Shown here piece by piece: positions 19,522-40,810 of a stretch of 40,810 nt of DNA. Every line of letters starts with the position of its first letter. Position 1 is the stretch's first letter. Both the position numbers and the translations under genes were made by a program. This stretch comes from a virus: the UHGV virus genome UHGV-0096231, one strand, 5' to 3'. The notes beneath the pieces are model-generated. The model was not told where the DNA came from, ran no database searches, and worked only from the letters and a program-made list of their open reading frames with translations.

Positions 19522-19995
19522 TTAGTATCCTATTGCTTCAAAATGCAGTGTCGGTGTTTCGCCGAGATTGGGTGTCGTATACGCCACAGTGAATCGCGTT
19601 CTTGATACGTCAGTGCCAGAATCAGTATCGCGATGCGTTGCCAGTGATTTTCCGGCCATTGTTGCCTGGGTCGAATAGCTGTAACTCGCTAGTGTTGCCA
19701 GCGTTGCTATTTGTGCATTTGGGAATTGTCTGGGGAAATTAACCCTGTAGTAATGGGTGTAGTACGTCACCCCACCAAGCACCTGCGCGTTGAAGTTACC
19801 AACTGGTGTCAGTGTCACAGTGCCAGCCTGTCGAATCATACCATTTGGGAGAATATCCCAGGCAGTTTGTCCGTTTCGCGACATACCAAATGCGGACATG
19901 TCCGGGAGTTGATTATTACCGGTTCCGACATCCCGTTTTGCCGCTTCTCCCAATTGAACGTTTATGAAAATGCAGAAATAGCGCGCAAATGGCAT
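19522..19995 (-). CDS. alternative tail fibre distal segment (StfE-like), inverted orientation
   Basis: 157-aa ORF on the minus strand ending in AIGY, matching the ALGY end of the plus-strand fibre, with a similar RDVG region. It lacks an N-terminal constant part of its own and would be expressed only after inversion. Confidence 0.6.
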   Translation of the reverse strand: MPFARYFCIFINVQLGEAAKRDVGTGNNQLPDMSAFGMSRNGQTAWDILPNGMIRQAGTVTLTPVGNFNAQVLGGVTYYTHYYRVNFPRQFPNAQIATLATLASYSYSTQATMAGKSLATHRDTDSGTDVSRTRFTVAYTTPNLGETPTLHFEAIGY

Positions 19996-20024
19996 CGTTC
20001 CTGTTTTTGTCAGGAGGAGCTATC

Positions 20025-20579
20025 ATGCTTATTGGCTATGTTCGCGTATCAACAAATGACCAGAACACCGATCTACAACGTAATGCGTTGAACTGTGCAG
20101 GATGCGAGCTGATTTTTGAAGACAAGATAAGCGGTACAAAGTCCGACAGACCAGGACTGAAAAAGCTGCTCAGGACATTATCGGCAGGTGACACGCTGGT
20201 GGTCTGGAAACTGGACCGACTGGGGCGCAGTATGCGGCATCTTGTCGTGCTGCTGGAGGAGTTGCGTGAACGAGGCATCAACTTTCGTAGTCTGACGGAT
20301 TCAATTGATACCAGTACCCCAATGGGGCGCTTTTTCTTTCATGTGATGGGTGCCCTGGCTGAAATGGAGCGTGAACTGATTGTTGAACGAACAAAAGCTG
20401 GACTGGAAGCAGCTCGCACACAGGGACGAATTGGTGGACGTCGCCCCAAACTTACACCAGAACAATGGGAGCAGGCCGGACGATTAATTGCATCAGGCGT
20501 TCCTTGCCAGAAGGTGGCGATCATCTATGATGTTGGTATATCGACACTGTATAAGAAGTTTCCGGTCGGAGATAAATGA
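20025..20579 (+). CDS. pin: DNA invertase (serine recombinase, Pin/Gin/Hin family)
   Basis: N-terminus MLIGYVRVSTNDQNTDLQ carries the catalytic serine motif of resolvase/invertase. 184 aa from the ATG at 20025 with AGGAGG RBS. C-terminal helix-turn-helix present. Same position as pinE in e14. Confidence 0.9.
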   Translation: MLIGYVRVSTNDQNTDLQRNALNCAGCELIFEDKISGTKSDRPGLKKLLRTLSAGDTLVVWKLDRLGRSMRHLVVLLEELRERGINFRSLTDSIDTSTPMGRFFFHVMGALAEMERELIVERTKAGLEAARTQGRIGGRRPKLTPEQWEQAGRLIASGVPCQKVAIIYDVGISTLYKKFPVGDK

Positions 20580-20639: not shown

Positions 20640-21509
<870 letters not shown>

Positions 21510-21774: not shown

Positions 21775-23250
21775 ATGAGTGATAAAGTTTCACCCATTAG
21801 ACCCCTTGGAGGAATTATGTCTGAATTTGAAGTGTTGGCACAGCATCTGCTGAAGGAAGCCGAGGCGGAAGAAAAGCTGCGACAGGAAAATGATAAAAAG
21901 CTTATCGAGAAAGTGCTGGAAATCTATGATCAGAAGTATGTGGCTGAATTACTGAGAAAAGTCGGAAGAAATGAGTGGAGCCGTGAAACCATTAACCGCT
22001 GGATTAATGGCAAGTGTTTACCAAAATCGTTGACTTCAGTAGAAGAGTCTCTTCTGCGTAAGATGCTACCAGAACCACCTGCAAACCATCCGGAATATGC
22101 TTTCCGCTTCATTGACTTATTTGCTGGAATTGGAGGGATACGGAAAGGTTTTGAGGCCATTGGAGGCCAGTGTGTTTTTACCAGTGAATGGAATAAAGAT
22201 GCTGTGCGTACATACAAGGCCAACTGGTTTAACGATGAACAGGTGCATAAATTCAATCTCGATATTCGGGAAGTCACGCTGAGTGATAAAACCGATATAT
22301 TGGAAACGGATGCTTATGCATATATTGATGAGCATGTGCCGGATCATGATGTGCTTCTTGCGGGGTTCCCGTGCCAGCCATTTAGCCTTGCTGGTGTTAG
22401 TAAGAAAAACTCACTTGGTCGTGCGCATGGTTTTGAATGTGAAGCACAAGGAACACTTTTTTTTGACGTGGCACGTATTATACGAGCAAAAAAACCGGCA
22501 ATTTTTGTGCTGGAAAATGTCAAAAATCTGAAGAGCCATGATAAGGGTAAAACTTTCAAAGTCATTATGGAGACCCTTGACGAGCTGGGCTACGAAGTTG
22601 CCGATGCTGCAGAAATGGGAAAAAACGATCCAAAGATTATCGATGGGAAGCATTTTTTGCCTCAGCATCGTGAACGCATTGTTCTGGTCGGATTTAGACG
22701 AGATCTGAATATTCACAAGGGGTTTACCTTGCGTGATATCAGTCGTTTTTATCCGGAACACCGCCCATCATTTGGTGAATTGCTGGAGCCTGTAGTCGAC
22801 AGTAAATATATACTTACGCCAAAACTATGGGAGTACCTTTATAACTACGCCAAAAAGCATGCAGCCAAGGGGAATGGTTTTGGCTTTGGGTTGGTCAATC
22901 CTGAGAATAAGGAAAGCATTGCACGCACACTTTCTGCCAGATATCACAAAGACGGATCAGAAATTCTTATTGATCGTGGTTGGGATATGGCAACGGGAGA
23001 GGCTGACTTTATGAATGAGAGTAACCAGGCTCGTCGACCACGCAGGCTGACTCCCCGAGAGTGCGCACGCCTTATGGGGTTTGAAAAACCTGGAGGGAAA
23101 CCATTCCGTATTCCGGTTTCAGATACTCAGTCATATCGGCAGTTCGGTAACTCCGTTGTGGTGCCAGTATTTGAAGCCGTTGCCAGACTTCTGGAACCCT
23201 ATATCCTCAAAGCTGTTTCTGCTGATGCTGGTAAGACTGGGCAGCCTTGA
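21775..23250 (+). CDS. ecoRIIM: DNA cytosine-5 methyltransferase (Dcm / M.EcoRII-like)
   Basis: C5-methyltransferase motifs are present: FAGIGG (motif I), GFPCQPFS (motif IV, catalytic Cys) and ENV. Close overall resemblance to E. coli Dcm and M.EcoRII as recalled from memory. Convergent with an EcoRII-like endonuclease gene. Confidence 0.9.
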
Positions 23251-23284
23251 GAACACCTCCCGGCCTTTTAAGCCGGGAGTCAGC

Positions 23285-24499
23285 CTATGATAGTTCAGTG
23301 TAAAGTTCTATCAGCTCAGTAATGAATGCTCCGAGCGTTATTAATTCTTCTCTAACTGCTTCTGGGTATTTTTTATGTAAAGTTGATGGTACAACGAGTC
23401 TGACACCCGCATCTTTCATTTCTCGGTATTGTGCTGAAGAAACACCTTCTTGCAGCGTAAATAAATGTACCTGATGGATTTTATCTGCTTCATTCAGTAT
23501 CTGACGCCAGCGATCTTTGCAGGTGGTCTTTACTGCCAGCATACGTAAGTTTTCTACAGGAAATTCAGCGTTATGATATGCCTCTGCTGAAGGAAACAGG
23601 AAATCTGGTTTTTTATTACCTTCAGTAACTGCCTGAGTGGAGAAATGCCGTAGTCCGTGCTCGATAAAAAGCTTCTCTAGGTGAAGTTCAAGTGATTTAC
23701 CTGCCCTTGATTTACGTCGATTACTGACAGAGTTGGCTAATGCAATAAACTCATCTACAGAATCGAATCCTTTCTTAATAATATCAAGAACATGTAATTC
23801 CTCGACGAGTAGAAAAATATCATACTCGACACGCCGACGGTCAATCAGTTGCTCATCTGGATCCTTGGAGTTTTTAGCATAATGGCCAGCAGCATATTGA
23901 ATAATTTCGTTTCCAGAAGGAAAACGCTTCTTCCAGTCTTCAGGAATAACATATTTATGATTTACTGGAGTTTGCTGAAGAGACAATCCGCCCAAAATTT
24001 GTCCGGCTGGGCCGAAAATTAGGGTTCCAGGTATGATTTCGCCAATAGCAGACTCGATGAGATCCTCTTCATCGGGATTGACGCAGACCCATATATCTAC
24101 CTCGGAACAGTCAGTGTTCTGTTCGTTTAACCTGAAAGCAAGAATTGTGAGGGCTCCTGTATTTTCAGGGTTCTGTAATGGACTTCCTCTCCCCCAGCGC
24201 GTAATTCTTTTTTCGTTTCGGGTCTTACCAAAATAACGGTTGTTGTAATAAATTGCGCGTGCTTGGGTATCAGGGCAATCATGGGATGATACATGCGCAG
24301 TAAGGAAGACTGAAGGGTTCAGTTCGCGAGTATGATTGATAGATGGAAAAAGCTTTTCAACGATATTTGAGGGGATATAAAGTCCGACCTGATGGCCACC
24401 TGTTGCGCCTGTGTCGTTTGCAGAAAGGCGTTTGATGTAGATAAAGTAATTCCCGCTTGCGATATCAAGCAGCCAGTTATGAAAAACCGACATATACAT
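23285..24499 (-). CDS. ecoRIIR: type IIE restriction endonuclease (R.EcoRII-like)
   Basis: 404 aa. N-terminus MSVFHNWLL...YIKRLSANDTGATGGHQVGLYIP and the rest match R.EcoRII closely, from memory of that protein. Partnered with a Dcm-like methyltransferase. The true start may be the second Met. Confidence 0.85.
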   Translation of the reverse strand: MYMSVFHNWLLDIASGNYFIYIKRLSANDTGATGGHQVGLYIPSNIVEKLFPSINHTRELNPSVFLTAHVSSHDCPDTQARAIYYNNRYFGKTRNEKRITRWGRGSPLQNPENTGALTILAFRLNEQNTDCSEVDIWVCVNPDEEDLIESAIGEIIPGTLIFGPAGQILGGLSLQQTPVNHKYVIPEDWKKRFPSGNEIIQYAAGHYAKNSKDPDEQLIDRRRVEYDIFLLVEELHVLDIIKKGFDSVDEFIALANSVSNRRKSRAGKSLELHLEKLFIEHGLRHFSTQAVTEGNKKPDFLFPSAEAYHNAEFPVENLRMLAVKTTCKDRWRQILNEADKIHQVHLFTLQEGVSSAQYREMKDAGVRLVVPSTLHKKYPEAVREELITLGAFITELIELYTELS

Positions 24500-24570: not shown

Positions 24571-24603
24571 AAAACAAAAAGCCCGCATAAGCGGGCTTTT
24601 GTG
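24571..24603. terminator. bidirectional Rho-independent terminator-like hairpin
   Basis: aaaaacaaaaa-gcccgc-ataa-gcgggc-ttttgtg: a GC stem flanked by an A-run and a T-run. Lies upstream of the endonuclease start, between divergent genes. Confidence 0.5.
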
Positions 24604-24788: not shown

Positions 24789-25257
24789 GCTGGTGAACTT
24801 CCGATAGGGCGAGTATTGAATGATTTACAGCCGTTATTGATTTTACATATTTTTTGTATGAAAGGATTAGCGTCTCCTCCCACCGATCCTCCATGGCTTT
24901 ACGCCAGTGTCTCTAGGACTGCTATGTGCCATAAGCGGAAGTATTTAACAACTATCAGTGTTGTTCAACAGATAAAGGGGCACTTGATTTTTTCTGTTCT
25001 CAGGAAATGATAAAAGCGCGTCGGTTCAAGCCTGCTTAACGGGAGTTTGTTAATCCTGTTGCCGTGACGTTTTGACACCATTATGATGGGGAGACACTTA
25101 ATGTATGAAGGTTCCGCCACTTATACCTGTCCAACAACTGCCTCGGGTGTTTCTTTGTATGAATAAGTGGTAATGAGTAGTGAATCGCTAACAGTCACCC
25201 GAACAATCGGTGCCTGCAATTAATTCTATATTCTAAACGAGGGGGAGATTATTACAC

Positions 25258-26238
25258 ATGAAATTTAAGGACAAGAACCTTAAGGCTCTCGCGGAATGTA
25301 TCATAGGAGATAATAAGGCATTTCTGTATCGTTCAAGCAGTCACATCACTGAATTTTTCCAGGACTGCGGCATGGATGTTACTCATGACGGATCCACTCG
25401 GTGGAAATGGACGGCCCAGAGGCTTGAAGAACTTCTTTATGAGCCACAGTCAAAGCCACATACTTTGCCGGAAAGGTTTGTTCATGTGCTCAGAACTTTA
25501 ATGTTAAAAGAAGATGCAATGGATGACGATCCAGGAAGATTAAAGGCGCTTGAAGAACTGAACAAGCCTTTGATGCGGGAAGGCTATGAGGCATTCTATG
25601 GTGACGATCGCCTTTTGTATATACGCCATACCGATACCAAAACGGTTTCAGTCAGTAATAACCCTCATCGGCCCTTAACGCCTCACGAAGTAGAATGCAG
25701 AAGGTTACTGACCGCGTTTCTTGATACCTGCTCAGAAGATGAGTTAATAGAAGATATTCTCCTTCCTTTATTCCGGCAACTTGGTTTTCACCGGATAACA
25801 GCAGTGGGACATAAAGATAAAGCGCTGGAATACGGGAAAGACATCTGGATGAAGTTCACACTGCCAACTCAGCATGTTCTTTATTTCGGCATTCAGGCAA
25901 AAAAAGGTAAGTTGGATGCGTCCGGTGCCAGCAAATCTACGAATTCAAACGTGGCAGAAATCTTCAACCAGGTACTGATGATGCTTGGCCATGAAATATT
26001 TGACCCAGAAACAAATAGAAAGGTGCTGGTAGATCATGCCTTTATCGTTGCTGGCGGAGAAATTACTAAACAGGCGAGGAACTGGCTGGGCGGGAAACTT
26101 GATGCCAGCAAAAGAAGCCAGATAATATTTATGGACCGGGAAGACATTCTTAATTTATATACTGTAAGTAATGTACCTCTGCCAACAGGTGCTCTCATCT
26201 CTGATGATGCCGTTAAGAACGATGATATTCCTTTCTAA
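25258..26238 (+). CDS. hypothetical protein with PD-(D/E)xK-like nuclease motif (candidate defence gene)
   Basis: 326 aa, AT-rich, GGAG RBS. The segment ELIEDILLPLFRQLGFHRITAVGHKDKALEYGKDIWMKF...HVLYFGIQAKKGK fits an E...D...(Q)xK restriction-endonuclease-fold pattern. Function not established. Confidence 0.5.
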   Translation: MKFKDKNLKALAECIIGDNKAFLYRSSSHITEFFQDCGMDVTHDGSTRWKWTAQRLEELLYEPQSKPHTLPERFVHVLRTLMLKEDAMDDDPGRLKALEELNKPLMREGYEAFYGDDRLLYIRHTDTKTVSVSNNPHRPLTPHEVECRRLLTAFLDTCSEDELIEDILLPLFRQLGFHRITAVGHKDKALEYGKDIWMKFTLPTQHVLYFGIQAKKGKLDASGASKSTNSNVAEIFNQVLMMLGHEIFDPETNRKVLVDHAFIVAGGEITKQARNWLGGKLDASKRSQIIFMDREDILNLYTVSNVPLPTGALISDDAVKNDDIPF

Positions 26239-26733
26239 TCAGAAGTACGTCTTTTTCTGAAAGAATACGTGATAGGTAGCCACACCACACCTTTAGTGAC
26301 CCCTTAATCTGGTAATATAACAGCCCGTATGAATGTCCGCGGCATCGCGGGCTGAAATTTATTAAAAATACTTATTCATCAAGCTGGAGTAGTTTGCCGA
26401 GTAACTGTAAACGCCCAACTTAACCGGACCATTCACTTTTAGATTGCTACCAGCAAACCAACTTCCGTTTCTCGCTCATAACAGACATTAACTACAGTTA
26501 TGGTAGAAGGTATGCATACTGGGTGGGGAAAGTATGAAGGAAAAGAAGACTGCTGCGCAGTTTGTCGTCACATTTATCTTCATTGGCTATGCAAGTCATA
26601 ATACAAGGTGGGACAAAACTGAGACACATAAGGCCTCACAATGACTTGCAAGGCTTTACATGTTTTGATGTGGTGGGACGTGTGAGCGCAGTATTGATGG
26701 GGTAATACTTTGAATTAGAAGCGGATTCTTATA

Positions 26734-26779
26734 ATTCGTAATGCGAAGGTCGTAGGTTCGACTCCTATTATCGGCACCA
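26734..26779 (+). other. att core: 46 bp identical to the 3' end of tRNA-Thr(CGU) (thrW), not an intact tRNA
   Basis: ATTCGTAATGCGAAGGTCGTAGGTTCGACTCCTATTATCGGCACCA matches thrW from the anticodon loop (CGT) through the T-arm and acceptor 3' end. The 5' half of the tRNA is absent, so this is a duplicated attachment-site core. Confidence 0.8.
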
Positions 26780-26796
26780 TTCAAACATCTCCCCAA

Positions 26797-26944: not shown

Positions 26945-28159
26945 GTGAAACTCAATGCCCGTCAAATAGACACAGCCAAGCCAAAAGAGAAGGCTTACAA
27001 GCTGGCCGATGGTGGCGGTTTGTATCTCTTGGTAAAACCTAATGGAGGTAAATACTGGCGACTTAAATATCGTGTAGCTGGTAAAGAGAAGCTATTGGCA
27101 CTAGGTGTGTATCCTGAGGTTACTCTAGCCGATGCTCGGGCAAAACGTGAAGATGCGAAAAGAGGTATCGCTGGTGGTATCGATCCGATGGAAGCGAAAC
27201 GAGAGGAAAAGATTGCCCGGGAAACGCAGTTAAACAACACCTTCAAAGATATTGCCCTTGAGTGGCACAGCAGCAAATTAAAAAAATGGTCTGCTGGTTA
27301 TGCTTCAGACATCCTCGAAGCCTTCAACAAAGATGTGTTCCCTTACATTGGCAAAAAACCAATCGCCGAAATCAAACCACTTGAACTTCTGAATGTGCTG
27401 CGGCGCATCGAGGGGCGCGGTGCTACAGAAAAAGCCAAAAAAGTGAGGCAGCGGTGCGGGGAAGTTTTCCGCTATGCAATAGTCACTGGTCGCGCAGAGT
27501 ATAACCCTGCACCAGACCTTACTAGCGCGATGCAAGGCCATGAATCTAATCATTACCCTTTCCTTACAGCTAAAGAATTACCTGATTTTTTCAAGGCATT
27601 GTCCAGTTACTCAGGAAGCGCATTGGTTGTTATGGCGGCTCGTCTACTGATTATCACCGGCTTGCGGACTGGCGAACTACGTGGCGCATTATGGGATGAA
27701 ATTGATTTCAACAAGGCTATCTGGGAGATACCCGCTTCACGTATGAAAATGCGGCGGCCTCATATTGTGCCATTGTCTGATCAGGCTCTTTCGCTTATTG
27801 GGAAGATTAGAGAAATAACAGGCAATTACCCTCTTATGTTTCCCGGGCGCAATGATCCAAGGAAAACAATGAGTGAGGCCAGCATAAACCAAGTGTTTAA
27901 GCGCATTGGCTACGCTGGACGTGTAACTGGTCATGGGTTCCGGCACACTATGAGCACGATTTTGCATGAGCAGGGCTATAACACCGCGTGGATAGAAACG
28001 CAGCTCGCTCACGTTGATAAGAACTCAATTCGTGGCACATACAACCATGCGCAATATCTGGATGGAAGGCGGGAGATGCTTCAATGGTATGCCGACTATA
28101 TGGATTCTCTCGAGCATGGCGGAAATGTGGTGCATATGGTGTTTGAAAAACACGCATGA
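26945..28159 (+). CDS. tyrosine integrase (P4 family)
   Basis: 404 aa. N-terminus KLNARQIDTAKPKEKAYKLADGGGLYLLVKPNGGKYWRLKYR is the typical P4-type integrase arm-binding domain. C-terminal catalytic region with HGFRHT...Y. GTG start. Immediately downstream of the tRNA-derived att core. Confidence 0.9.
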   Translation: MKLNARQIDTAKPKEKAYKLADGGGLYLLVKPNGGKYWRLKYRVAGKEKLLALGVYPEVTLADARAKREDAKRGIAGGIDPMEAKREEKIARETQLNNTFKDIALEWHSSKLKKWSAGYASDILEAFNKDVFPYIGKKPIAEIKPLELLNVLRRIEGRGATEKAKKVRQRCGEVFRYAIVTGRAEYNPAPDLTSAMQGHESNHYPFLTAKELPDFFKALSSYSGSALVVMAARLLIITGLRTGELRGALWDEIDFNKAIWEIPASRMKMRRPHIVPLSDQALSLIGKIREITGNYPLMFPGRNDPRKTMSEASINQVFKRIGYAGRVTGHGFRHTMSTILHEQGYNTAWIETQLAHVDKNSIRGTYNHAQYLDGRREMLQWYADYMDSLEHGGNVVHMVFEKHA

Positions 28160-28429
28160 AACAACTGGACAAGTATACAGAGGTTTACTAAAGTATAGGG
28201 GAGTAGATTGATAAAAACTCACAGAGGATTGCTATTTAACAGTTAGCCCTGGAGAAGGGCAATCGCTCTTTTATAAACGAAGGTGTATTGAGCCTTCTAC
28301 GTCGCTGACAAAGCGGAATGTTCTTTAAAACTACTGGATGTCACGCCTAATAGCGTGATCCTGCCGAAATGCAGGGTAGCTCTACCCTTGTGGAGCAAAC
28401 AAACCAAAACAATCTGACTATCTTTTATA

Positions 28430-28464
28430 AAAGACCGCAATATGTTTTTCATATTGTGGTCTTT
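28430..28464. promoter_or_regulatory. 15-bp-stem hairpin / palindrome upstream of alpA
   Basis: aaagaccgcaatatg-ttttt-catattgtggtcttt, one mismatch in the stem. Candidate operator or terminator. Confidence 0.35.
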
Positions 28465-28550
28465 GGCGTATTCGACATTTGACGCAAATAAAACTCTCGC
28501 CATTCGTTGCAGGAGGGGGTTATTGCGTCATTAGTACAGGATATTAATAA

Positions 28551-28754
28551 ATGGCTAATTACAATTCATTAATTCGTCTCTCTGAAGTTCAAAGGCGAAC
28601 TGGTTATAGCAAAGCATGGATTTATCGTCTTATTAGTCAGGGGAGGTTCCCTAAACAGGTAAAAATTGGAAGTCGGGCAATTGCTTTTGTTGAGTCTGAA
28701 ATAGATGAATGGATTGAGAAGTGTATATTAGAATCTAGAGACGAGGTGGCCTGA
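28551..28754 (+). CDS. AlpA-family transcriptional regulator / excisionase
   Basis: 67 aa. LIRLSEVQRRTGYSKAWIYRLISQGRFPKQVKIGSRAIAFVESEIDEWI is the canonical AlpA helix-turn-helix pattern. Confidence 0.8.
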   Translation: MANYNSLIRLSEVQRRTGYSKAWIYRLISQGRFPKQVKIGSRAIAFVESEIDEWIEKCILESRDEVA

Positions 28755-29185
28755 TGGAAAAGAAAAACCGCCCATTACAGGCGGCTAATTCAGATATTCG
28801 TGTATCTGATGTTACGCCCCTTACAAAATCCCTTCAAGCACCAAAGCGCACACCGAAAAAGCATCGTGCCAGAGTCTATATGCTGCGTACTGGTATAGAG
28901 GGATGGACAGAAAATGACATTCTTCGCTACTGCCGTCTGTCTTCTGGTCGTAACTATGCAACAGAGTTAGAACGCCAGCTTGGAATCACTCTGGAGCGTA
29001 TCGACGAAAAGAATCCTGATGGTATCGGAACACACCTTCGCTACCGTTTCTCCTGCCGTGGTGATGTTCTGAAAGTGATCACTCATATTAACCATCTTGC
29101 GAACATAAATGATCACAACGGACTTTCTCAGCAGGAAATTGCCGACATTCTGAAACTCTACCCGGACGCGTTTAACGCCGCCTAA
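28754..29185 (+). CDS. hypothetical protein
   Basis: 143 aa, ATGA-coupled to alpA. Confidence 0.5.
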   Translation: MEKKNRPLQAANSDIRVSDVTPLTKSLQAPKRTPKKHRARVYMLRTGIEGWTENDILRYCRLSSGRNYATELERQLGITLERIDEKNPDGIGTHLRYRFSCRGDVLKVITHINHLANINDHNGLSQQEIADILKLYPDAFNAA

Positions 29186-29197
29186 CGGAGACTGAAA

Positions 29198-30031
29198 ATG
29201 AACATCGAAAAAAGCAGATTAATTTCTGAGGCTGCCCCTCATCTGAACGCCTCTCTGGGCACAATTAACGGTAATGAATTTGCCGCAATTGTCCCGGTTA
29301 TTCCTGGTCATATCGGTGGGCGTGAAACCAATATTGTTAGCGCAAAAGCGTTACACAAAGCGTTGGGCGTGGGAAAAGACTTCTCTACATGGATCACTGA
29401 TCGCATCTCTGAATATGACTTCACCATTGGGCACGATTACTCAGTCCATAAAACAATTTCCCCAAATTTGGGGAAAAGCCCGAATGGCGCGGCTTACAGC
29501 AAGATTAAGCAGTCTGGCAGACCCGGCAAAGACTATCTGTTAAGTGTCGGAATGGCGAAAGAACTGGCAATGATCGAACGCAATGATCAGGGTCGCGCTA
29601 TCCGTCGTTATTTCATCCAGTGCGAGGAAGAATTACAGCGTAGCGTGCCTGAAATCGCCGCCCGCTATCGTCGCCAGCTAAAAGCCCGTATTAGTGCCGC
29701 AAACAACTTTAAGCCAATGTGCGATGCGCTGAATATGGCCCGTGCCGAGCAGGGGAAAACGACGCAGCAACACCACTACACAAACGAGAGCAATATGATT
29801 TCTCGTATCGTTCTTGGTGGGCTAACTGCTAAGCAGTGGGCGCGGATAAATGGCTATTCTGGCGAACCTCGCGACCATATGAACGCAGAACAGCTTGAGC
29901 ACCTCTCATATCTCGAAAGCACCAATATCACGTTAATTGATATGGGCATGGAATATGAGCAGCGCAAAGGAGAACTCACCCGCCTGTCGCAACGCTGGCT
30001 CGCCAAGCGTCTGGAGGCGGTCCATGTTTAA
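29198..30031 (+). CDS. phage antirepressor-like protein (AntA / KilAC-type)
   Basis: 277 aa. The segment KDFSTWITDRI ... DYLLSVGMAKELAMIERNDQGRAIRRYFIQCEEEL resembles Ant-type antirepressor domains. Assignment from memory of the motif. Confidence 0.5.
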   Translation: MNIEKSRLISEAAPHLNASLGTINGNEFAAIVPVIPGHIGGRETNIVSAKALHKALGVGKDFSTWITDRISEYDFTIGHDYSVHKTISPNLGKSPNGAAYSKIKQSGRPGKDYLLSVGMAKELAMIERNDQGRAIRRYFIQCEEELQRSVPEIAARYRRQLKARISAANNFKPMCDALNMARAEQGKTTQQHHYTNESNMISRIVLGGLTAKQWARINGYSGEPRDHMNAEQLEHLSYLESTNITLIDMGMEYEQRKGELTRLSQRWLAKRLEAVHV

Positions 30032-30206
30032 GCCGACAGGAACACCACAACCTCAAAAACGCTACAAAGATGCCCACGGAGCACTCGTTACTGTCGAAAG
30101 CGTGTCTCACAACCGAGTGACGTTTTATCGCGACGGGTATCAATCGCCATGCGTACAACCGCTGGCACGTTTCATGAAGGAGTTCGCGGAGGTTAACAAA
30201 TGCTAA
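30027..30206 (+). CDS. small hypothetical protein
   Basis: 59 aa starting at an ATG that overlaps the ant stop (ATGTTTAA). Translational coupling suggests it is a real gene. Confidence 0.35.
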   Translation, partial: FKPTGTPQPQKRYKDAHGALVTVESVSHNRVTFYRDGYQSPCVQPLARFMKEFAEVNKC

Positions 30207-31267
30207 CCGCCCAGAAGAAGATATTTTCACTGGCTGGTATGTCGCCAAAATCCAGCAATATGACAGCAAAGTCAGACATTAATACAGCAGATACAAGCAA
30301 AGTTTATCATTTGCTGGTGGTCGGAACGGATGCCTTAACCATACCAGAAATCTCGGGCGATGATATTAGCATTGAGAAGGTCAGCGGCTGCGCCAGAAAA
30401 TTTCTGGTCGTAGATGATGTCTTCAGCTCGTGTAGTGACTCCACAAAAACATTCGTCCACGCGCGTGACGTTAACGAAATGAGCGCGATGTACTGTGCTT
30501 CTGGTTCTTCCAATAGTGAGTTTTCGGAGTCCATAAAAAAGAGCTTGCCGTTATGCGGCAACACGGTTTATGGTTATAAGGCACCTCATAAAACGGGTGC
30601 CGGGATTGGCGTCCTGGTAAATCGAATGGCGACATATGACGCGCCGAGCGTCTTTTTTTATGTCGTAGGTCTGACTCACCCATTTTTTGGGCGTTGGTGT
30701 ATAATCCAGCGCCTTTGTCAATCAATGGTGGCTCAGGCAGGGGCTTCTTCGGAAGCGCCGGTATCCATTCGAGCCGGTTACGCCAACCCTGTCTGGGCTA
30801 CCACCAGCGAAATTGGCGTTTCCGGTGGTAGCGTTACATGCTATCGAATGGAGGCTGCCACATGCTGGCTACTACCCCTACCCAAAAACCGCAATTTATC
30901 TGGATTATCGCCGCAGTTCGCCGCGATTGCCCGACAATTACCGCCAAAATTCATCATATTGCTGCCGAGTCTGAACGCGATGCTCGCCGTTCTCTGGTGC
31001 GCGATCACATCTGCTTTTTTGCTGGTCGTATCCGCATGGAGGTGGCACATGATTAAAACCTACGATGTGCATATGGATCCCCTCGAACGCACAAGCCAGA
31101 TCATCACACTGACAGAAGTGATTAACGATATTCTGGTGAGCAACTCTCCCTCACGAGACGAAAAACTGAAGGCGTTACTCGCGATATTGGACCTCGCCGT
31201 TCGTGACGTTCATTTCCTGCTGGAAGGTGGACAAATGCCATGCAAAACGGGGGCAACCAATGAATAA
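30200..31267 (+). CDS. hypothetical protein; ORF boundary anomalous (the in-frame read-through to 31267 is probably not one gene)
   Basis: The start is coupled to the upstream stop (ATGCTAA). The frame has no stop until 31267, yet the region 30862-31056 shows better codon usage in another frame. Possible frameshift or fusion. Confidence 0.3.
30862..31056 (+). CDS. small hypothetical protein
   Basis: 64 aa from the ATG at 30862 with GGAGG RBS. Codon usage (ctg, ccg, cgc, atc, acc) is more host-like than the overlapping frame. Confidence 0.45.
   Translation: MLATTPTQKPQFIWIIAAVRRDCPTITAKIHHIAAESERDARRSLVRDHICFFAGRIRMEVAHD
31049..31267 (+). CDS. small hypothetical protein
   Basis: 72 aa. ATG overlaps the previous stop (ATGATTAA). 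Confidence 0.4.
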   Translation: MIKTYDVHMDPLERTSQIITLTEVINDILVSNSPSRDEKLKALLAILDLAVRDVHFLLEGGQMPCKTGATNE

Positions 31268-31454
31268 CTCAATTAATACCCCTCGCCTTACGTCCGCACT
31301 TCAATTAATCGAGCAAGCAGCGGCTGTCCCGGTTGCTGTCAGTCTTTCGGCTGAAGAAATGGACGCTGCTGATGTCGTGGATGCGATTAAAGCGTGCTCA
31401 TCTTTGGTTAACGATGCCCGTGCCGAGCTGGTAATTCTTGGGGGTGAAAAATGA
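31260..31454 (+). CDS. small hypothetical protein
   Basis: 64 aa. ATG overlaps the previous stop (ATGAATAA). Confidence 0.4.
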   Translation: MNNSINTPRLTSALQLIEQAAAVPVAVSLSAEEMDAADVVDAIKACSSLVNDARAELVILGGEK

Positions 31455-31714
31455 ATATCACCTTAATTTATCGTCATCCGTGTGAGCTGGAAATTGAATC
31501 ATTGCTGGGGCGCGAAGAGCCATATCCAGACACATTCACTCCCGCAGATTGCGCGACTGAACGGCTTACCAGAGCGCGCACAGGTCTGGTTCATGTGATG
31601 AATGAGATTGTTCCCTCGGTGGGAGGGGAACAGGCGACAGTAATCAATAGCTGGCTACAAAAAGTTACCTCCCTGATAGATATCGGTTTAATCGATGTGG
31701 AGAGTGCGAAATGA
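31451..31714 (+). CDS. small hypothetical protein
   Basis: 87 aa, ATGA-coupled. Confidence 0.4.
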   Translation: MNITLIYRHPCELEIESLLGREEPYPDTFTPADCATERLTRARTGLVHVMNEIVPSVGGEQATVINSWLQKVTSLIDIGLIDVESAK

Positions 31715-31932
31715 CCAACATCCAGCTCATTGAAGCGCAATGTCGCATCGAACAGGTTCAGACTGTTTTAGGGTTCTGGCTTGAAGGGGCCAGCCCCTGC
31801 AACAGAGACAAGTTAATGATTGGCGCGGTTATGTCACTGCTCAATGGCGTACCAGAAGCTATTCAGGAAGCGGACGAATTGTTGGGCAAATATGAGTTAC
31901 AGAATCATTCAGGCGAGGCGAAACATGAATAA
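31711..31932 (+). CDS. small hypothetical protein
   Basis: 73 aa, ATGA-coupled. Confidence 0.4.
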   Translation: MTNIQLIEAQCRIEQVQTVLGFWLEGASPCNRDKLMIGAVMSLLNGVPEAIQEADELLGKYELQNHSGEAKHE

Positions 31933-32527
31933 TTTCTTAACTTTCCATGCAGAAGCAACGCCTGACGGCGTAAACATCATGTACCGCAGCAACGATGGCA
32001 TGACAGAACGCGTTGATACCGTCTCATATATTGATGCCGTAAATCGTCTGGATGCCGGGGATTATGACGATAAACCAGATGAAGGCATGTTTATACATCT
32101 CGCTATTGCCAGTGGCGGCAACCAGGGATATTTCGATTACACATCACAGCATCACGTGATTATGTGGCGCTGGCTGATAGCAACAGCATTCATCAATGAA
32201 ATGAGAAAGGAAAACGGCACCGTCAGCATTATTGATGACAGTGGCAATCATTCCGTGGTTTCTGTTTATTCCAATGGCATCGTCGCCATGCCGCTGTATC
32301 CAGTAGCAGAGCGCCTCGCTATGGCAAACAACATTGAGGGCGCAATGATCGAGAAATATGGTGTTGATGTCGGAACAAAGAATGCCATCATTTTTTACAG
32401 CAACATGTTCGATGTCGAACAGGGAACACTCACTTCGTTTGGGCGAGAAGTGCTTGCCGATCTTCACAACAGCTTTATTGCCGAACTAAACGAAAACGGC
32501 ATCCCAGAAGCACCAGTGACGCACTAA
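31925..32527 (+). CDS. hypothetical protein
   Basis: About 200 aa from the ATG at 31925, which overlaps the previous stop. Directly precedes the primase gene. Confidence 0.5.
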   Translation: MNNFLTFHAEATPDGVNIMYRSNDGMTERVDTVSYIDAVNRLDAGDYDDKPDEGMFIHLAIASGGNQGYFDYTSQHHVIMWRWLIATAFINEMRKENGTVSIIDDSGNHSVVSVYSNGIVAMPLYPVAERLAMANNIEGAMIEKYGVDVGTKNAIIFYSNMFDVEQGTLTSFGREVLADLHNSFIAELNENGIPEAPVTH

Positions 32528-32539
32528 ACGGGGGCCAGA

Positions 32540-34891
32540 ATGCGAAACATTGATCTTATCCGTCAGGTTATCAGTGCGTCTGAAAACAACTGGCCTCATG
32601 TGCTGGGCTGCCTGAACATAAATGTCCCTGACTCTCCGCGCCGTCATGCTCCCTGCCCTGCATGTGGGGGCAAAGATCGATTCCGGTTCGATGACAACGG
32701 GCGCGGTAGCTTCATCTGTAATCAGTGCGGCGCTGGTGATGGGCTGGATTTAATTAAACGCGTAAATAACTGCGACACAACAGAGGCGGCGCTTCTTGCC
32801 GCTGATGTTCTGGGTATTGATTACCGGACAACGGAAACACCAGAAGCCACCAGCCAGAAACGGGAACAACTGGAAACCGAGCGCCAGCGACGCGAACAGG
32901 AGCGCCTGAAAAGGGCAGAGAAGGACGAACAACAAAGACGGGATACGTTTTCCCGTCAGTTTGATGACATGCGCAGAAAGGCTGTAAACGGCAAATCTGA
33001 TTATCTGGTTGCGAAAGGGGTAGGTGATTTTACATTCCCCGTGTTGCCCGATGGATCTCTGTTGCTGGCGCTGGTGGATAAATCCGGCGCAGTCACAGCA
33101 GCACAGACTATTACCTCACATGGTGAAAAAAGACTCCTGACAGGTTCGGCAAAGCGGGGGGCATATCACGCCATAAACGCACAGAAACGACCTCACAGCA
33201 TCATAATTGCTGAGGGGGTGGCTACCGCCCTGTCGTGCCATTTAATTCGCCCTGACGCAATGACAGTGGCAGCAATCGACGCTGGCAACCTGTTGCCAGT
33301 AGCGGAAGTCATGCGCAGAACATATCCGCAGGCACAAATAATCATTGCCGCAGATAACGATCACCAGCAAGGAGACTCAGAAAGTGGAGGGATCAACACG
33401 GGGAAAGATGCCGCAGAGAGGGCCGCTATTTCCGTAGCTGGCAGGGTGTCTCTGCCACCGACTGACTATAAAGCCGACTGGAACGACTATCACCAACAAC
33501 ACGGGCTGGCGGCAGCCACAGCAGCATTTAAAGATTCGATGTACCAGCCACGGGGGAAAGGGGCGCAGGTGAAAAATCACAAACAGTCAGTCGGGGCGCT
33601 GAATGAGATCAGTTCTGGCGAGGTGTTAAGCGATGATGAAATTGCTGTCCTCGAAGAAATCAACCGGACGTTTACGCATGTCACCATCGGCGGGAAACAC
33701 AAGGTGGTGTCGCTAAAGCCTTCTCAAACCGGCGGTGTATCGCACGTTTTCGAGGATTTATCACAATTTCAGCATTATTTTCATCATAAACCGAGAGTCG
33801 CCAGAAAGCTGGCGGGATCGGCGTGGCTGTCATGGAGTGGGAAGAACTACAAGCCAGGAGGCGTAGGATTTTATCCAGTACCAGACAAATGCCCTGACGA
33901 TGTTTTTAATCTGTATGAGGGGCTGGCACTGGAACCAATTGAAGGAGATTGCACGGTATACCTTAATCACCTGTTGCAGGTTGTCTGTGCCGGTAATGAA
34001 GAGGCATACCAATATCTTATCCAGTGGATGGCGCACATTATCCAAAAGCCTGATGAAAAACCGTCCGTGGCAATCGTGATGAAATCTGTCCCGGGCACAG
34101 GGAAAGGCACAACGGTTAAACCGCTGCTGCAAATACTGGGGCAGTACGCCGCCCACATTAACGGGGCGGGACATATTTCAGGGCGCTTCAATTCAATACT
34201 TGCTAACAAGCTACTGGTATTTGCTGACGAAGTGACGATCCACAAGCCGTCTGAAGCTGACAGACTTAAAGCGATTATTAGCGAACCGACGTTTAACCTT
34301 GAGCGCAAGGGAATTGATGCTGAACCAATGCCGAATTTTGCCCGGTTGATATTTGCCAGTAACAGCACACAGGTATTACAGGCAGGGATAAGAGAGCGTC
34401 GCTATCTCGTGCTTGAGCCATCTCCTGAAAAAGCACAGAGCCGGGAGTATTTTGATCGGCTGTACAGTTGGCTTAATGATGGCGGTGCCGCAAAGTTGCT
34501 TTGGCATCTTAAAGGGGTGGATCTCTCAGGTTTTGACCCTCAACGAGCGCCACAGACCGATGCCTTACGTGAAGAAATCTTGCTGGGGCTGTCTGGCGTT
34601 GAATTGTTTCTTTATGGCGAGCTAATCAATGAACCTCCGTTTAATGGCGAAGTCCGTTTGTTTGCAAAGGATATGGTTAGTCGGTTTGTAGCGTGGTCGC
34701 TTGAGCGTGGGGAAAAGCTTAAAGAACCAGCTGCCAGATCACTACTGGGTAAATCACTTGCACAAATGGGGCTGGTGAAGCATGGAAGACCAGACCGAGG
34801 GAATGGCGTGTTCTACGAACTACCAGAGGTCGGAGTTCTACAGGCTGCGTTTGCCCGTCTGATCGGTATGGGGGGTTATGATGTTTTTTAA
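32540..34891 (+). CDS. P4 alpha-like primase-helicase (zinc-binding / toprim primase + D5-type helicase)
   Basis: 783 aa. N-terminal Cys cluster CPACGGKDRFRF...FICNQCGAGDG (zinc-binding primase domain), a toprim-like middle region (IIIAEGVATALS, AADND), and a C-terminal P-loop-like VPGTGKGTT. Confidence 0.85.
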   Translation: MRNIDLIRQVISASENNWPHVLGCLNINVPDSPRRHAPCPACGGKDRFRFDDNGRGSFICNQCGAGDGLDLIKRVNNCDTTEAALLAADVLGIDYRTTETPEATSQKREQLETERQRREQERLKRAEKDEQQRRDTFSRQFDDMRRKAVNGKSDYLVAKGVGDFTFPVLPDGSLLLALVDKSGAVTAAQTITSHGEKRLLTGSAKRGAYHAINAQKRPHSIIIAEGVATALSCHLIRPDAMTVAAIDAGNLLPVAEVMRRTYPQAQIIIAADNDHQQGDSESGGINTGKDAAERAAISVAGRVSLPPTDYKADWNDYHQQHGLAAATAAFKDSMYQPRGKGAQVKNHKQSVGALNEISSGEVLSDDEIAVLEEINRTFTHVTIGGKHKVVSLKPSQTGGVSHVFEDLSQFQHYFHHKPRVARKLAGSAWLSWSGKNYKPGGVGFYPVPDKCPDDVFNLYEGLALEPIEGDCTVYLNHLLQVVCAGNEEAYQYLIQWMAHIIQKPDEKPSVAIVMKSVPGTGKGTTVKPLLQILGQYAAHINGAGHISGRFNSILANKLLVFADEVTIHKPSEADRLKAIISEPTFNLERKGIDAEPMPNFARLIFASNSTQVLQAGIRERRYLVLEPSPEKAQSREYFDRLYSWLNDGGAAKLLWHLKGVDLSGFDPQRAPQTDALREEILLGLSGVELFLYGELINEPPFNGEVRLFAKDMVSRFVAWSLERGEKLKEPAARSLLGKSLAQMGLVKHGRPDRGNGVFYELPEVGVLQAAFARLIGMGGYDVF

Positions 34892-34920
34892 TATAGTCTT
34901 TTTACAAGAAGATCGTTTTT

Positions 34921-35026
34921 ACCTGTACCACCTATACCACTTTGCTAATTCAGCATTAAAAACAATGTGTTATAGTGGTACAGGTCAATATCTTACCTAT
35001 ACCAGACCTGTACCACCTATACCATT
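34921..35026. repeat. iteron cluster 1 (ACCTGTACC / GGTACAGGT family)
   Basis: cctgtaccacctatacca occurs twice as a direct repeat (34922-34939 and 35007-35024), with an inverted copy tggtacaggtc between. Immediately downstream of the primase gene. Confidence 0.6.
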
Positions 35027-35067
35027 AACAAACGCATTTCTTCTGGCTGGCTGAGAGGGAACAACCA

Positions 35068-35298
35068 ATGATGAGCGCACCATTTTACAAAGTGCGCCAG
35101 TTAGCTTCTTCCTCTGGCTGGCAGCTACGGTTTGAGGGGCGTTCAGACTGGCTACCCATTGCGGCATGGGCGAATGTTGAAATGTGTATTGACGGCGATA
35201 CCGTTGAAATCATTATTCCCTGCGTGGCAAGTCGGGACGGCTGTATAGAGCCAACAGATATGGCAGCAGAAATCAGAGAGGTAAAACATGAGCAATAA
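35068..35298 (+). CDS. hypothetical protein
   Basis: 76-aa ORF between the two iteron clusters. Confidence 0.4.
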   Translation: MMSAPFYKVRQLASSSGWQLRFEGRSDWLPIAAWANVEMCIDGDTVEIIIPCVASRDGCIEPTDMAAEIREVKHEQ

Positions 35299-36025
35299 CT
35301 ATTGCATACCGCAGGGAATGACCAGAACGGAGCGCGAAGAATTAAAAAGTTTCGCTACACAGTGCGGGAATGCTGGCGACATCCAAAGTCTGGAACGCAC
35401 TTTAATTATGATTGCGCACTGGATGCGTCAGGGGCAAAGGGTTTCATTTACTGAATATGCCAGCCAGTGGACAGAGGCACAGCGCGAACGGAGCGACGGT
35501 AATCACTCAACACCCGAAATGGCGAAGCAATGGCCTTTCAGTGGTAAACGCTGTATCAGTCCCGGTGGTTCAGATTATTACCCTGCTGGTGTGGGAGATG
35601 AGCCATGTTGTGACGAGACTGAAATCCGCCACGCAGTGACAGTAATTACCGCTGAATACCCACAATTTAACCTTGACGGACTGGCGCTCCACAACCGGAA
35701 TGCGGACTGGGAAAACCCGCTTGATAACCCGTCATTTATCGTATCGGCGAAAAGCTGCCTGAGATGGATCAGAGACAACGGGATGAGTAATGCCCAGATT
35801 GAGAGCTTCCCGCAGGATAACCCCACATCTGACACGTTGAAGCATGAAGTGGAGCGATATAACCAGATAAACCACCAGCACAGTGATCACCCGCACTATA
35901 TCCCCAACGGAGCATTTATTGCGGCGATGGTGGCAAGCGGCTACAAGGTTAAGCCAGCGGGAAGAATGAACGCATTTTTCAATATTTCAAAAAAGGGATT
36001 ATGTGCTGCTATGGGTAAAAATTAA
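35288..36025 (+). CDS. hypothetical protein
   Basis: 245-aa ORF overlapping the previous gene. Confidence 0.5.
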   Translation: MSNNYCIPQGMTRTEREELKSFATQCGNAGDIQSLERTLIMIAHWMRQGQRVSFTEYASQWTEAQRERSDGNHSTPEMAKQWPFSGKRCISPGGSDYYPAGVGDEPCCDETEIRHAVTVITAEYPQFNLDGLALHNRNADWENPLDNPSFIVSAKSCLRWIRDNGMSNAQIESFPQDNPTSDTLKHEVERYNQINHQHSDHPHYIPNGAFIAAMVASGYKVKPAGRMNAFFNISKKGLCAAMGKN

Positions 36026-36030
36026 ATAAA

Positions 36031-36134
36031 TGGTACAGGTCTGTACAGGTGGGGAGAGGTCATTTTTACCCACCTGTACCACCTGCAGGCCGCGTCACAC
36101 AAGGGTTTGTGACATGGTGGTACAGGTGGTACAG
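36031..36134. repeat. iteron cluster 2 (GGTACAGGT family) with central palindrome
   Basis: tggtacaggtctgtacaggtgg, cacctgtaccacctg and tggtggtacaggtggtacag are copies of the same motif as cluster 1. A gtcacac...tgtgac palindrome lies at 36094-36113. Confidence 0.6.
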
Positions 36135-36499
36135 CAAAAACAGCGATTTTCTTTATAAGGTATGTTTTGCTCATCTGGCAGACGGAGGTATTCGCTGCGG
36201 TTTGGCACATAGCCCAGAACAGCAAAGAGTTTTACGAGACTTTTGTAAAATCCAGTGTACAAGGGCGTGACGTTTTTGAAGGAGAGACCTACGAAATTTT
36301 CGTAGTTCAAAAAATAGCCTCTGAGATGTTGTTATGCCTGTTCAGCAAACCATCCGCATAGCTGATCGCGAATCAAATTACCAATGGAGCCAGAAGCAAG
36401 GGCAGAACTGGAAAGCGCCTGCCGTGAAGAGTAATGCGACATCGTAAATATAGTTTTTAGAGTCCATAAAAAACCTGTCAAAACCTGACATACAGAACG

Positions 36500-36533
36500 A
36501 TGCCACCAGCTACTGAGCGGTGGCATTTTTTTG
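36500..36533 (+). terminator. Rho-independent terminator
   Basis: atgccacc-agctactgagc-ggtggcat followed by TTTTTTT. Confidence 0.6.
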
Positions 36534-36627
36534 TGCTATTTGTTTCATATTTTGCAATCACAATGATGAATATTGCGTTTTATGAAACTATAATGACTGT
36601 TGTTTTATACAGTTCTAAGGGGGCGTT

Positions 36628-36786
36628 ATGGCTATTTCAGTAAAGCCGGTATTGATAAGTGAGAAGCAAATGGAAGCGATAAAGAAAATTCAGGAGGAGC
36701 AGCGTAAAAAATCAGAGGTAGGAGTTGCGCCAACGATCCACGAAATTGCTCGGGGATTAATGGATAAGGCGCTGGCTTACACTTTA
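36628..36786 (+). CDS. small hypothetical protein (52 aa), first gene of the unknown operon
   Basis: ATG with AAGGGGG RBS. Encodes MAISVKPVLISEKQMEAIKKIQEEQRKKSEVGVAPTIHEIARGLMDKALAYL. Not in the ORF track because it is under 60 aa. Possibly a small DNA-binding or regulatory protein. Confidence 0.35.
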
Positions 36787-36793
36787 ACTGGAC

Positions 36794-40260: not shown

Positions 40261-40322
40261 CAGATGGCCATGGATGGTTGGTTATAATAGTAATTAGTAT
40301 TTTTTTCAAATAGTTATGAACA

Positions 40323-40730
40323 TTAACACTTGCCTTTAACATTGCCGACAAATGAGCCTGTAAATGAGCCTATATCAGATCGACTAATTGTTCGTGTATG
40401 GATCACTTTTCCGTCATTTGAGATTGCCCATGTGACAAGCGTCAGTTGACCATCTCGATAGCTTCTTCCCATCATGGCATTCGGAGATAGCGGGTAATAA
40501 TCAATACCTCCACCTATACCATCTTTTGCCAAGATAAGATCCGCCTTCTCTTTACTTATTACCAAATGAAAGGTATCTGGTATAGATGATAACTTATAGT
40601 TATACCCATCTGAACTTGAGGCTTCTTGTCCTTTCAGATCACCAATAATCCAGCATTCAGCGTTCGCTCCAAAAGAAGCAAATAATAAACCGGAGACAAC
40701 CAATCGCTTCAATTGATTCACACCAACCCT
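40323..40730 (-). CDS. secreted (signal-peptide) hypothetical protein, convergent with the 701-aa gene
   Basis: Start placed at a GTG with AGGGAGGG RBS, giving MNQLKRLVVSGLLFASFGANA-E..., a typical Sec signal peptide with an ANA cleavage motif. About 135 aa. The ORF track gives a longer version, 40323..40790. Confidence 0.5.
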   Translation of the reverse strand, partial: RVGVNQLKRLVVSGLLFASFGANAECWIIGDLKGQEASSSDGYNYKLSSIPDTFHLVISKEKADLILAKDGIGGGIDYYPLSPNAMMGRSYRDGQLTLVTWAISNDGKVIHTRTISRSDIGSFTGSFVGNVKGKC

Positions 40731-40810
40731 CCCTTTAGCGTTGTTTAGAATGGCAATCATCATATATCCAAGACATGGCATTTGGTACATAGCTTGGGTC
40801 GGGATTTCAA

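Follow-up and report, generated by a model that had tools for sequence, protein, structure and literature searches.

A mobile, stand-alone candidate nuclease of the PD-(D/E)xK type with a C-terminal tail resembling that of the host single-stranded DNA-binding protein

The window analysed here, which is the whole 40,810-nucleotide (nt) stretch of the virus genome UHGV-0096231, contains a gene for a protein of 326 amino acids (aa). The protein appears to be built of four parts, namely an N-terminal domain specific to the family (aa 1-135), a catalytic domain (aa ~142-305), a flexible and variable linker, and a tip that copies the C-terminal tail (SSB-Ct) of SSB, the protein that binds single-stranded DNA. 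We interpret it as a stand-alone, mobile PD-(D/E)xK nuclease, which is coupled to the SSB interactome through a host-matched mimic of the SSB tail and probably acts against phages or plasmids, and we give this combined reading about an even chance of being correct. The preliminary description of this DNA, made from the letters alone, had proposed a single-gene defence nuclease at this position; the SSB-like tip and the unusually high conservation of the family are features that it did not contain.

The tail was recognized in the alignment of the homologues. After the last helix, the protein continues with a variable, Pro-rich linker of about 15 residues and ends with NDDIPF. The hexapeptide DDDIPF is the C-terminus of E. 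coli SSB and the docking site for many SSB partners (PMC5872125), within the longer tail peptide WMDFDDDIPF (PMC3575820). The terminal sequence [IVLMY]PF was found in 120 of 134 full-length relatives, with exact DDDIPF in 44 of the 134, and full-length relatives of 39-59% identity end with NADIPF, DDDVPF, DDEIPF, NEDIPF, EEDVPF, GDDIPF or SGDIPF. The linker is the least conserved block of the protein (mean top-residue frequency 0.47). A disordered linker followed by an acidic tip that ends with D-D-[IL/P]-P-F, as in bacterial SSB, is a property of this family. Tail and N-terminal domain invariably accompany each other, and the relatives with other N-termini have no tail.

The sequence of the tip differs with the host lineage. 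A search seeded with a homologue from a Rhodococcus plasmid, which ends with ...SPWALSNDEPPF, yielded an actinobacterial set of 120 close relatives, with named members from Rhodococcus, Nocardia, Streptomyces, Mycobacterium, Saccharopolyspora and other Actinobacteria. In this set, 108 proteins end with PPF and none with [IVL]PF, and PW is present within the last ~20 residues in 95; the corresponding numbers in the first, Proteobacteria-dominated set of 120 were 0, 113 and 0. A second difference was observed at position -7, using 80 genome loci with organism names. The gamma/beta-proteobacterial proteins (26) have F at this position in 15 cases and L in none (typical tail, ...DFDDDIPF), while the alpha-proteobacterial proteins (30) have F in one and L in 13 (typical tail, ...(D/S)LDDEIPF), and the split between the lineages was significant (Fisher p ~1e-5 and 7e-5). 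The tip is thus (D)FDDDIPF in gamma/beta-proteobacteria, (D)LDDEIPF in alpha-proteobacteria, and PW...DEPPF in Actinobacteria. The published SSB tails are GADDEPPF in M. smegmatis (PMC3575820), WGSAPASGSFGGGDDEPPF in M. tuberculosis (PMC7847540), DEPPF in SsbA of S. coelicolor (PMC3616714), and DLDDEIPF in Rhodobacter sphaeroides and FDDEIPF in Halomonas (PMC13490951). Each of the three lineage-specific versions matches the corresponding SSB tip over 5-8 residues. Because of these three matches, the pattern is hard to explain, as judged from sequence comparison, unless the tail works by imitating the SSB tail of the host.

The catalytic domain was not recognizable from sequence searches. The 326-aa protein has no match in Pfam, PADLOC, NCBIfam, PHROGs or the sequences of the PDB, and a profile search of the PDB gave only a match to GatB at the level of chance. 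A first AlphaFold model, based on close homologues only, was confident for aa 1-135 and failed for the C-terminal half. A second model, for which the alignment included relatives down to 25% identity, had a mean predicted local distance difference test score (pLDDT) of 84 and showed the alpha-beta-beta-beta-alpha-beta core of the PD-(D/E)xK superfamily. The motifs that had originally suggested this superfamily, GKDIWMKF and YFGIQAKKGK, are present as described, and in A2, the divergent alignment (46 sequences, including relatives of 25-45% identity), E160/D161, D195, Q213 and K215 are each conserved to at least 90%, well beyond what chance would give. In the model these residues lie on the expected helix and on two consecutive strands.

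Structure prediction had been recommended as a check of the nuclease fold, and structural comparison of the model supported it as well. FokI gave the highest score (9.9), followed by AspBHI (9.4), AF1548 with its Mrr-type domain (9.2), the LlaBIII nuclease (8.7), MspJI (8.3), the small subunit of BspD6I (8.1) and the nuclease domain of Avs4 (7.6), and lower scores (5.7-6.7) were obtained for HamA, Shedu, Can2, Cap4 and NucC. Foldseek was concordant, with probabilities of 0.91-0.95 for FokI and MspJI; since none of its matches passed E 0.001, the relationship is a distant one. At the sequence level, the window protein had no match to Mrr_cat (PF04471) at E <= 1, and seven of the 46 relatives gave weak matches (best E 0.0012) that did not reach the gathering score. 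The conservation of D195, Q213/K215 and E160/D161 and their places in the model support the assignment of the catalytic domain, as modelled, to the PD-(D/E)xK superfamily, closest to the Mrr/FokI type and of the 'D...QxK' kind. Since fold and motif fit this superfamily and the Mrr_cat test at the sequence level failed, we treat the protein as a new family within it. Metal-dependent DNA nuclease activity is predicted for the protein.

The N-terminal part is shorter than had been described: the uncharacterised region, given before as roughly 170 aa, is actually a domain of about 135 aa. No SRA, winged-helix, EndoIII-type or other known relative of this domain was found, and the protein has no recognizable modified-base reader (SRA-like or winged helix) such as those of type IV enzymes. 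A sister family (P0235, P0240, P0257, P0258 and P0268), with 25-30% identity overall, has the nuclease domain in common with it, but its N-terminal domains are others (SLFN_AlbA_2 in P0268) and the SSB-like tail is absent. Because the sister family combines this domain with other N-termini, it suggests that the nuclease domain is a swappable effector module.

The gene is a stand-alone unit. All-against-all comparison of 618 neighbouring open reading frames (ORFs) from 80 genomes revealed no neighbour family common to more than six of the 80 loci, and neighbours selected manually in Vibrio, Ruficoccus, a cyanobacterium and E. coli were unrelated to each other. These results support a single-gene unit with no conserved partner, in agreement with what had been proposed. 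A cognate methyltransferase, as expected of a type II restriction-modification (R-M) system, is not linked to it in these loci: the methylase adjacent in the window pairs with EcoRII, and no neighbour is recurrent. The adjacent genes across the loci encode type I R-M subunits, DRT-type reverse transcriptases, PD-T4-3, AriA-like and AbiEii-like ATPases, caspase-like proteases, integrases, resolvases, insertion sequence (IS) elements, and some housekeeping proteins. The cyanobacterial locus contains a DISARM-like DUF1156/SNF2-PLD block, the Vibrio locus HipA, NA37 and NADAR/PRTase genes, and the Ruficoccus locus Mob, RHS and AAA_13 genes. Such neighbourhoods are characteristic of defence islands and of the cargo of mobile elements, as a qualitative association only.

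The family is widespread, sporadic in its distribution, and mobile. A large protein collection contained 3,877 homologue clusters at 90% identity and 971 representatives at 50% identity, of which many are fragments. A survey of 185,579 species-level genomes yielded relatives in 463, with Proteobacteria, Cyanobacteria, Acidobacteriota, Planctomycetota, Verrucomicrobiota, Synergistota and Bacteroidales among them. Identities of 70-75% were obtained for homologues from E. coli, Vibrio, a cyanobacterium, Ruficoccus and a metagenome-assembled genome (MAG) of Omnitrophica, and at 151 of the 326 positions the same residue is at least 90% conserved in both the proteobacterial-type and the actinobacterial-type clades. 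The exact protein (WP_023147794.1) is encoded in 191 of 5,426 complete E. coli genomes (3.5%), where it is located at the end of the thrW prophage or, far more commonly, within a Qin-type prophage, with an integrase fragment on one side and hokD on the other. The DNA common to these two prophages is a 1.56-kb cassette, corresponding to 24925-26486 of the window. The gene was also found on 47 plasmids, 25 of which are conjugative. On one Salmonella plasmid it is part of an IS110-linked insertion, and E. coli, E. albertii and Klebsiella have IncF plasmids that carry it 139 bp downstream of vapBC. These locations support horizontal mobility between prophages, plasmids and defence islands, and the earlier proposal of horizontal acquisition holds in that the gene is mobile and often lies among defence genes.

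On four IncF plasmids (L012, L093, L094 and L095), the gene is located at about 6001-6981 or 7001-7981, on the same strand as vapBC and without the leader found in Enterobacterales, and it may be co-transcribed with vapBC. A gene for a 523-aa AAA ATPase converges on it in three of the four (L012, L093 and L095).

How the tail might work can be outlined as follows. Provided that it is functional, the tail probably docks in trans into the pockets that receive SSB tails. These pockets may be located on host SSB-interacting proteins such as ExoI, RecQ, RecJ, PriA and the chi subunit, which are among the partners in the E. coli SSB interactome, or on others. They may also belong to phage or plasmid proteins adapted to the host SSB, for example annealases of the RecT/Red-beta type; dependence of phage recombinases on the host SSB-Ct has been reported (PMC13490951). 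Docking would bring the nuclease to replication or recombination intermediates of the invading DNA, or would bring helper exonucleases and helicases to the cuts that it makes. At the intermediates, the FokI-like domains would pair and cut, as domains of the FokI type must pair for cutting both strands. The same acidic tail probably folds back and keeps the protein off at rest, in the manner of the acidic tails of SSB, T4 gp32 and T7 gp2.5, which fold back in self-inhibition. As for the biological role, we incline slightly towards defence or exclusion directed against phages or plasmids. It is a tentative and rather doubtful proposal that the protein is an immune sensor-effector based on mimicry of a hub tail, in which the copy of the host SSB tail serves a FokI-type nuclease as bait or as an internal pseudo-ligand. 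Its triggers would be phage proteins seizing the SSB tails of the host, or unusual arrays of single-stranded DNA (ssDNA) coated with SSB that arise from foreign DNA during its replication or entry.

Several points weigh against a mobile anti-phage or anti-plasmid nuclease acting through its tail. The counts for host matching come from related, non-independent sequences, many of the organism labels are MAG assignments, and the host SSB tails are those of published model species and not of the same genomes as the homologues. Some members have imperfect tips, including the window protein itself (NDDIPF, with no F at -7). AlphaFold2 leaves the tail unplaced (pLDDT < 50), and so neither cis nor trans docking is structurally supported. 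Each polypeptide has one tail, which competes with thousands of SSB tails per cell, and the SSB partners of the host would bind it constantly; because of this constant binding, the tail alone cannot distinguish infection from normal growth. The identity of ~70% across phyla is unlike that of most defence genes. There was no match among 5,027 PADLOC models (PADLOC-DB v2.0.0; 0 families at E <= 1). Among 2.9 million viral contigs, no more than 23 carry the gene, and most of these are predicted prophages; it is absent from 50,697 sequenced phage genomes, on which ground it was also rejected as a phage gene proper. Finally, the defence role is no more than plausible, and the DNA target and the partner of the tail are putative.

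An unlikely explanation, which nevertheless accounts for host matching, is that the protein is a sensor of SSB-coated ssDNA. The N-terminal domain would then have a pocket for the host SSB tail, filled at rest by the protein's own tail. Exposed arrays of SSB tails, on replication intermediates of phages or plasmids, incoming conjugative ssDNA or ssDNA phages, would displace the own tail and concentrate the enzyme, so that its FokI-like domains dimerise and cut. The strict linkage of the N-terminal domain with the tail, and the absence of the tail from the relatives with other N-termini, fit this idea. The IPF-type and PPF-type clades are separated by 13 fixed differences, of which 11 are located in the N-terminal domain; four or five are losses of conserved basic residues, in the clade with the less acidic tail. 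The comparison is, however, a single phylogenetic split. Host matching would follow, since the pocket must read the host SSB tail, and the long flexible linker is accounted for as well. However, a pocket for SSB-Ct is an extra assumption for a domain that has no known relative, AlphaFold2 does not dock the tail, and the normal SSB arrays of the lagging strand would need to be tolerated.

We consider it improbable that the protein is a non-immune accessory nuclease of mobile elements, which joins the replication, repair or recombination complexes of the host by its SSB-tail mimic for the benefit of the element (processing of forks or recombination intermediates, addiction, or competition), or a toxin that poisons the SSB interactome. 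There is no conserved linkage to genes for replication, recombination or antitoxins, the element types and insertion points are very varied, and R-M, DRT, PARIS-like and DISARM-like genes are frequent neighbours of the gene.

Least probable is a modification-dependent enzyme (type IV or END-like) with no methyltransferase, in which the N-terminal domain reads modified or hypermodified phage DNA, the Mrr/FokI-type domain cuts it, and the tail only recruits host exonucleases or helicases for finishing or is incidental. AspBHI, MspJI and Mrr-type domains are among the best structural matches, stand-alone nucleases of the type IIS-like kind with a fused sensor are already established in defence (END nucleases, PMC12191111), and no methyltransferase is linked to the family. 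However, the N-terminal domain is helical and matches no SRA, winged-helix or EndoIII-type domain. In addition, common methylation cannot be the target, because the gene adjoins an active-looking Dcm-type methylase and occurs in Dcm+/Dam+ hosts. A reader of phage modifications, which change fast, would not be expected to be nearly invariant across phyla, and the host-matched tail is too well conserved for an incidental role.

Other candidates were rejected. The gene is not part of the adjacent EcoRII system, as the methylase belongs with the EcoRII endonuclease, nor of a toxin-antitoxin module, as it has no conserved neighbour and vapBC is itself a complete pair found beside it only on related IncF plasmids. 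The protein is not an SSB, because it has no OB (oligonucleotide/oligosaccharide-binding) fold: no SSB or OB match was obtained in Pfam, and the fold is predicted to combine a helical domain with a nuclease. A chance C-terminus was dismissed, given that a random DDIPF end is expected at ~3e-7 and that the tip is kept family-wide. A gene of the leading region of conjugative plasmids (with ssb, psiB and ardA) was discarded, since the one case is the IS110-linked insertion, on the opposite strand, and the other IncF copies are located in the maintenance/accessory region beside vapBC. A non-coding partner for the gene was also rejected, as the conserved leader is confined to Enterobacterales and Rfam gave no match above the gathering scores in 19000-29000.

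Some known systems resemble the window protein in part. FokI, AF1548, the LlaBIII nuclease, MspJI and AspBHI are alike in fold, but the window protein has no significant match to Mrr_cat and no methyltransferase partner, and its N-terminal domain is unrelated to the recognition domains of FokI, to SRA and to winged-helix readers. We know of no Mrr/FokI-type enzyme with an SSB-like tail as a feature. In functional design it comes closest to defence nucleases that have a fused sensor and no methylase, such as the END nucleases (PMC12191111), Upx (PMC13099982), Shedu and the Avs4 effector. Shedu SduA, Hachiman HamA, the nuclease domain of Avs4, Upx and the END nucleases are all nuclease effectors from defence systems of one or a few genes. 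As compared with these effectors, the window protein has a different N-terminal domain, far more conservation across phyla, and the mimic of the SSB tail. It resembles bacterial SSB in having a variable, disordered linker and an acidic -PF tip identical or nearly identical to that of the host lineage, but its body is a nuclease with no OB fold, and binding of the tip to SSB partners is putative.

Similar acidic C-terminal tails are known from T7 gp2.5 and the T7 gp4 helicase-primase. The latter is, like the window protein, a non-SSB enzyme with an SSB-like acidic tail and a terminal Phe; the tail of gp4 competes for the same docking site. Tails of this kind, such as those of T4 gp32 and E. coli SSB, are also known to fold back over a DNA-binding surface and mask it. 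The tail proteins of T7 and T4 are replication proteins of single phages, whereas the window protein is a mobile nuclease that appears to copy the SSB tail of its host. NucS/EndoMS, a PD-(D/E)xK mismatch nuclease, is also tethered to a hub, by a C-terminal clamp-binding peptide; it is, however, a vertically inherited repair gene, and its motif binds the hub (the clamp), while the window protein carries a copy of the hub's own tail. DdrB of Deinococcus, an ssDNA-annealing protein with no OB fold and no nuclease domain, has been reported to have an SSB-like C-terminal motif that is dispensable for radioresistance (PMC3834827). No publication on the 326-aa protein family, and no report of a nuclease or defence protein with a host-matched SSB tail, was found in the literature searched, which was incomplete.

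To our knowledge, sensing of the SSB interactome would be a new principle in bacterial immunity, and no earlier effector reads the state of this interactome directly. If our reading is true, a widespread single-gene nuclease joins the list of mobile defence or conflict genes, from a family of ~3,900 clusters (at 90% identity) that has no Pfam family and extends also to Actinobacteria, Acidobacteria, Verrucomicrobia and Cyanobacteria. It would also represent a novel link between an effector and the cell, made through a lineage-tuned copy of the tail that serves the essential SSB hub for docking. The tail would then provide a handle on the control of nucleases with no methylase, and on the role of the SSB interactome in the conflicts of bacteria with phages and plasmids. 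The tail rule (IPF, EIPF or EPPF according to the host) could be used for predicting the host range of the cassette and for finding other SSB-tail mimics.

The features of the gene and its surroundings are listed in Table 1. The ORF runs from ATG to stop exactly where the preliminary description had placed it, and its start codon is considered correct because the N-terminus MKFK... is kept in homologues of many phyla. A purine-rich, Shine-Dalgarno-like stretch, GGGGGAG, precedes the ATG. The gene region was said to be AT-rich, and its G+C content is indeed 0.43-0.44, compared with 0.53-0.59 in the phage structural genes at 1-18000. Its position between an R-M pair and the thrW attachment (att) core was likewise borne out, with the EcoRII pair on the left and the 46-nt match to tRNA-Thr on the right; no complete tRNA is present within the window.

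Table 1. Features of the 326-aa gene and its surroundings (positions in the window)
Feature	Position	Strand	Remark
Gin/Pin-type invertase	19989..20579		adjoins inverted tail-fibre segment of SfIV-like prophage
PD-T4-3 anti-phage protein, full-length homologue	20640..21464	-	PADLOC E 5e-140; LEM-3-like GIY-YIG domain
Dcm-type m5C methyltransferase	21775..23250	+	DNA_meth_N domain
EcoRII endonuclease	23285..24499	-	EcoRII-N and EcoRII-C domains
Terminator-like hairpin, strong	24577..24600	-	in 750-bp gap between EcoRII and cassette
Upstream non-coding stretch travelling with gene in Enterobacterales	24921..25257	+	blastn boundaries vs E. coli Qin-type prophage, Salmonella plasmid, Pantoea
Sigma-70-like site	25059..25087		in upstream leader (promoter scan)
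Coding sequence, 326 aa	25258..26238	+	identical to RefSeq WP_023147794.1, annotated 'hypothetical protein' in E. coli genomes
N-terminal domain, aa 1-135	25258..25662	+	five helices and beta-hairpin; invariant FxYRSS and HDGSTRW motifs
Predicted PD-(D/E)xK (Mrr/FokI-type) nuclease domain, aa ~142-305	25681..26172	+	
E160-D161, candidate metal-binding acidic residues, start of first core helix	25735..25740	+	helix 160-174 in model
D195 in GKDIWM, first core strand, 'D' of D...QxK	25840..25842	+	strand 196-201 in model
Q213-A-K215 in YFGIQAKKGK, second core strand, 'QxK' of Mrr/MspJI-type motif	25894..25902	+	strand 207-215 in model
Variable Pro-rich linker, aa 306-320, NVPLPTGALISDDAV	26173..26217	+	low pLDDT; length and sequence vary
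SSB-Ct-like tip NDDIPF, aa 321-326, preceded by K	26218..26235	+	E. coli SSB ends DFDDDIPF
Downstream flank travelling with gene	26239..26486	+	blastn boundaries at 26405-26486
GC-rich hairpin	~26323..26353		within downstream flank (sequence read directly)
tRNA-Thr 3' 46 nt (thrW-type att core)	26734..26779	+	100% identity to annotated tRNA-Thr genes; SfIV-like prophage end / P4-type island junction
P4-like integrative element	26945..40790		second element, starts right after thrW fragment
P4-type integrase	26945..28159		right of tRNA-Thr fragment
AlpA-like regulator	28551..28754		P4-like element
AntA-type protein	29198..30031		P4-like element
Ash-type protein	30200..31267		P4-like element
Toprim/DUF5906 primase-helicase	32540..34891		P4-like element
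P22-injectosome-type translocase homologue	36794..38155		P4-like element

The leader of the gene was not found in the upstream DNA of relatives outside Enterobacterales, and it could be a lineage-specific promoter/operator or a 5' untranslated region element. Its last ~140 nt (25120-25257) are nearly invariant in E. coli, Salmonella, Pantoea and Leclercia, while the coding DNA is 82-90% identical. In Leclercia (L014), part of the leader (2562-2759, equivalent to 24921-25118 of the window) lies ~3.1 kb away from the gene (5866-6978), and the gap contains an 897-aa ORF that was apparently inserted into the leader. In the window, the region just upstream of the cassette (24563-24883) gave only sub-threshold Rfam matches (STnc350, CssrB and RsmY).

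The left part of the window (1-18400, within a late-gene block at 1-19300) is 97-98% identical to the late regions of the Shigella phages SfIV, SfII and SfI, which integrate at thrW. From this likeness and the integration site, the 326-aa gene is, as read from the sequence, the final gene of the cargo that an SfIV-like prophage carries at its att end. The cargo region at this att-proximal end is occupied by defence genes: the PD-T4-3 homologue directly follows the tail-fibre and invertase genes of the prophage, and the Dcm-like methyltransferase and the EcoRII endonuclease form a complete EcoRII-type R-M pair. Three proteins of the P4-like element, encoded at 35288-36025, 38155-40260 and 40323-40790, had no match in Pfam or PADLOC.

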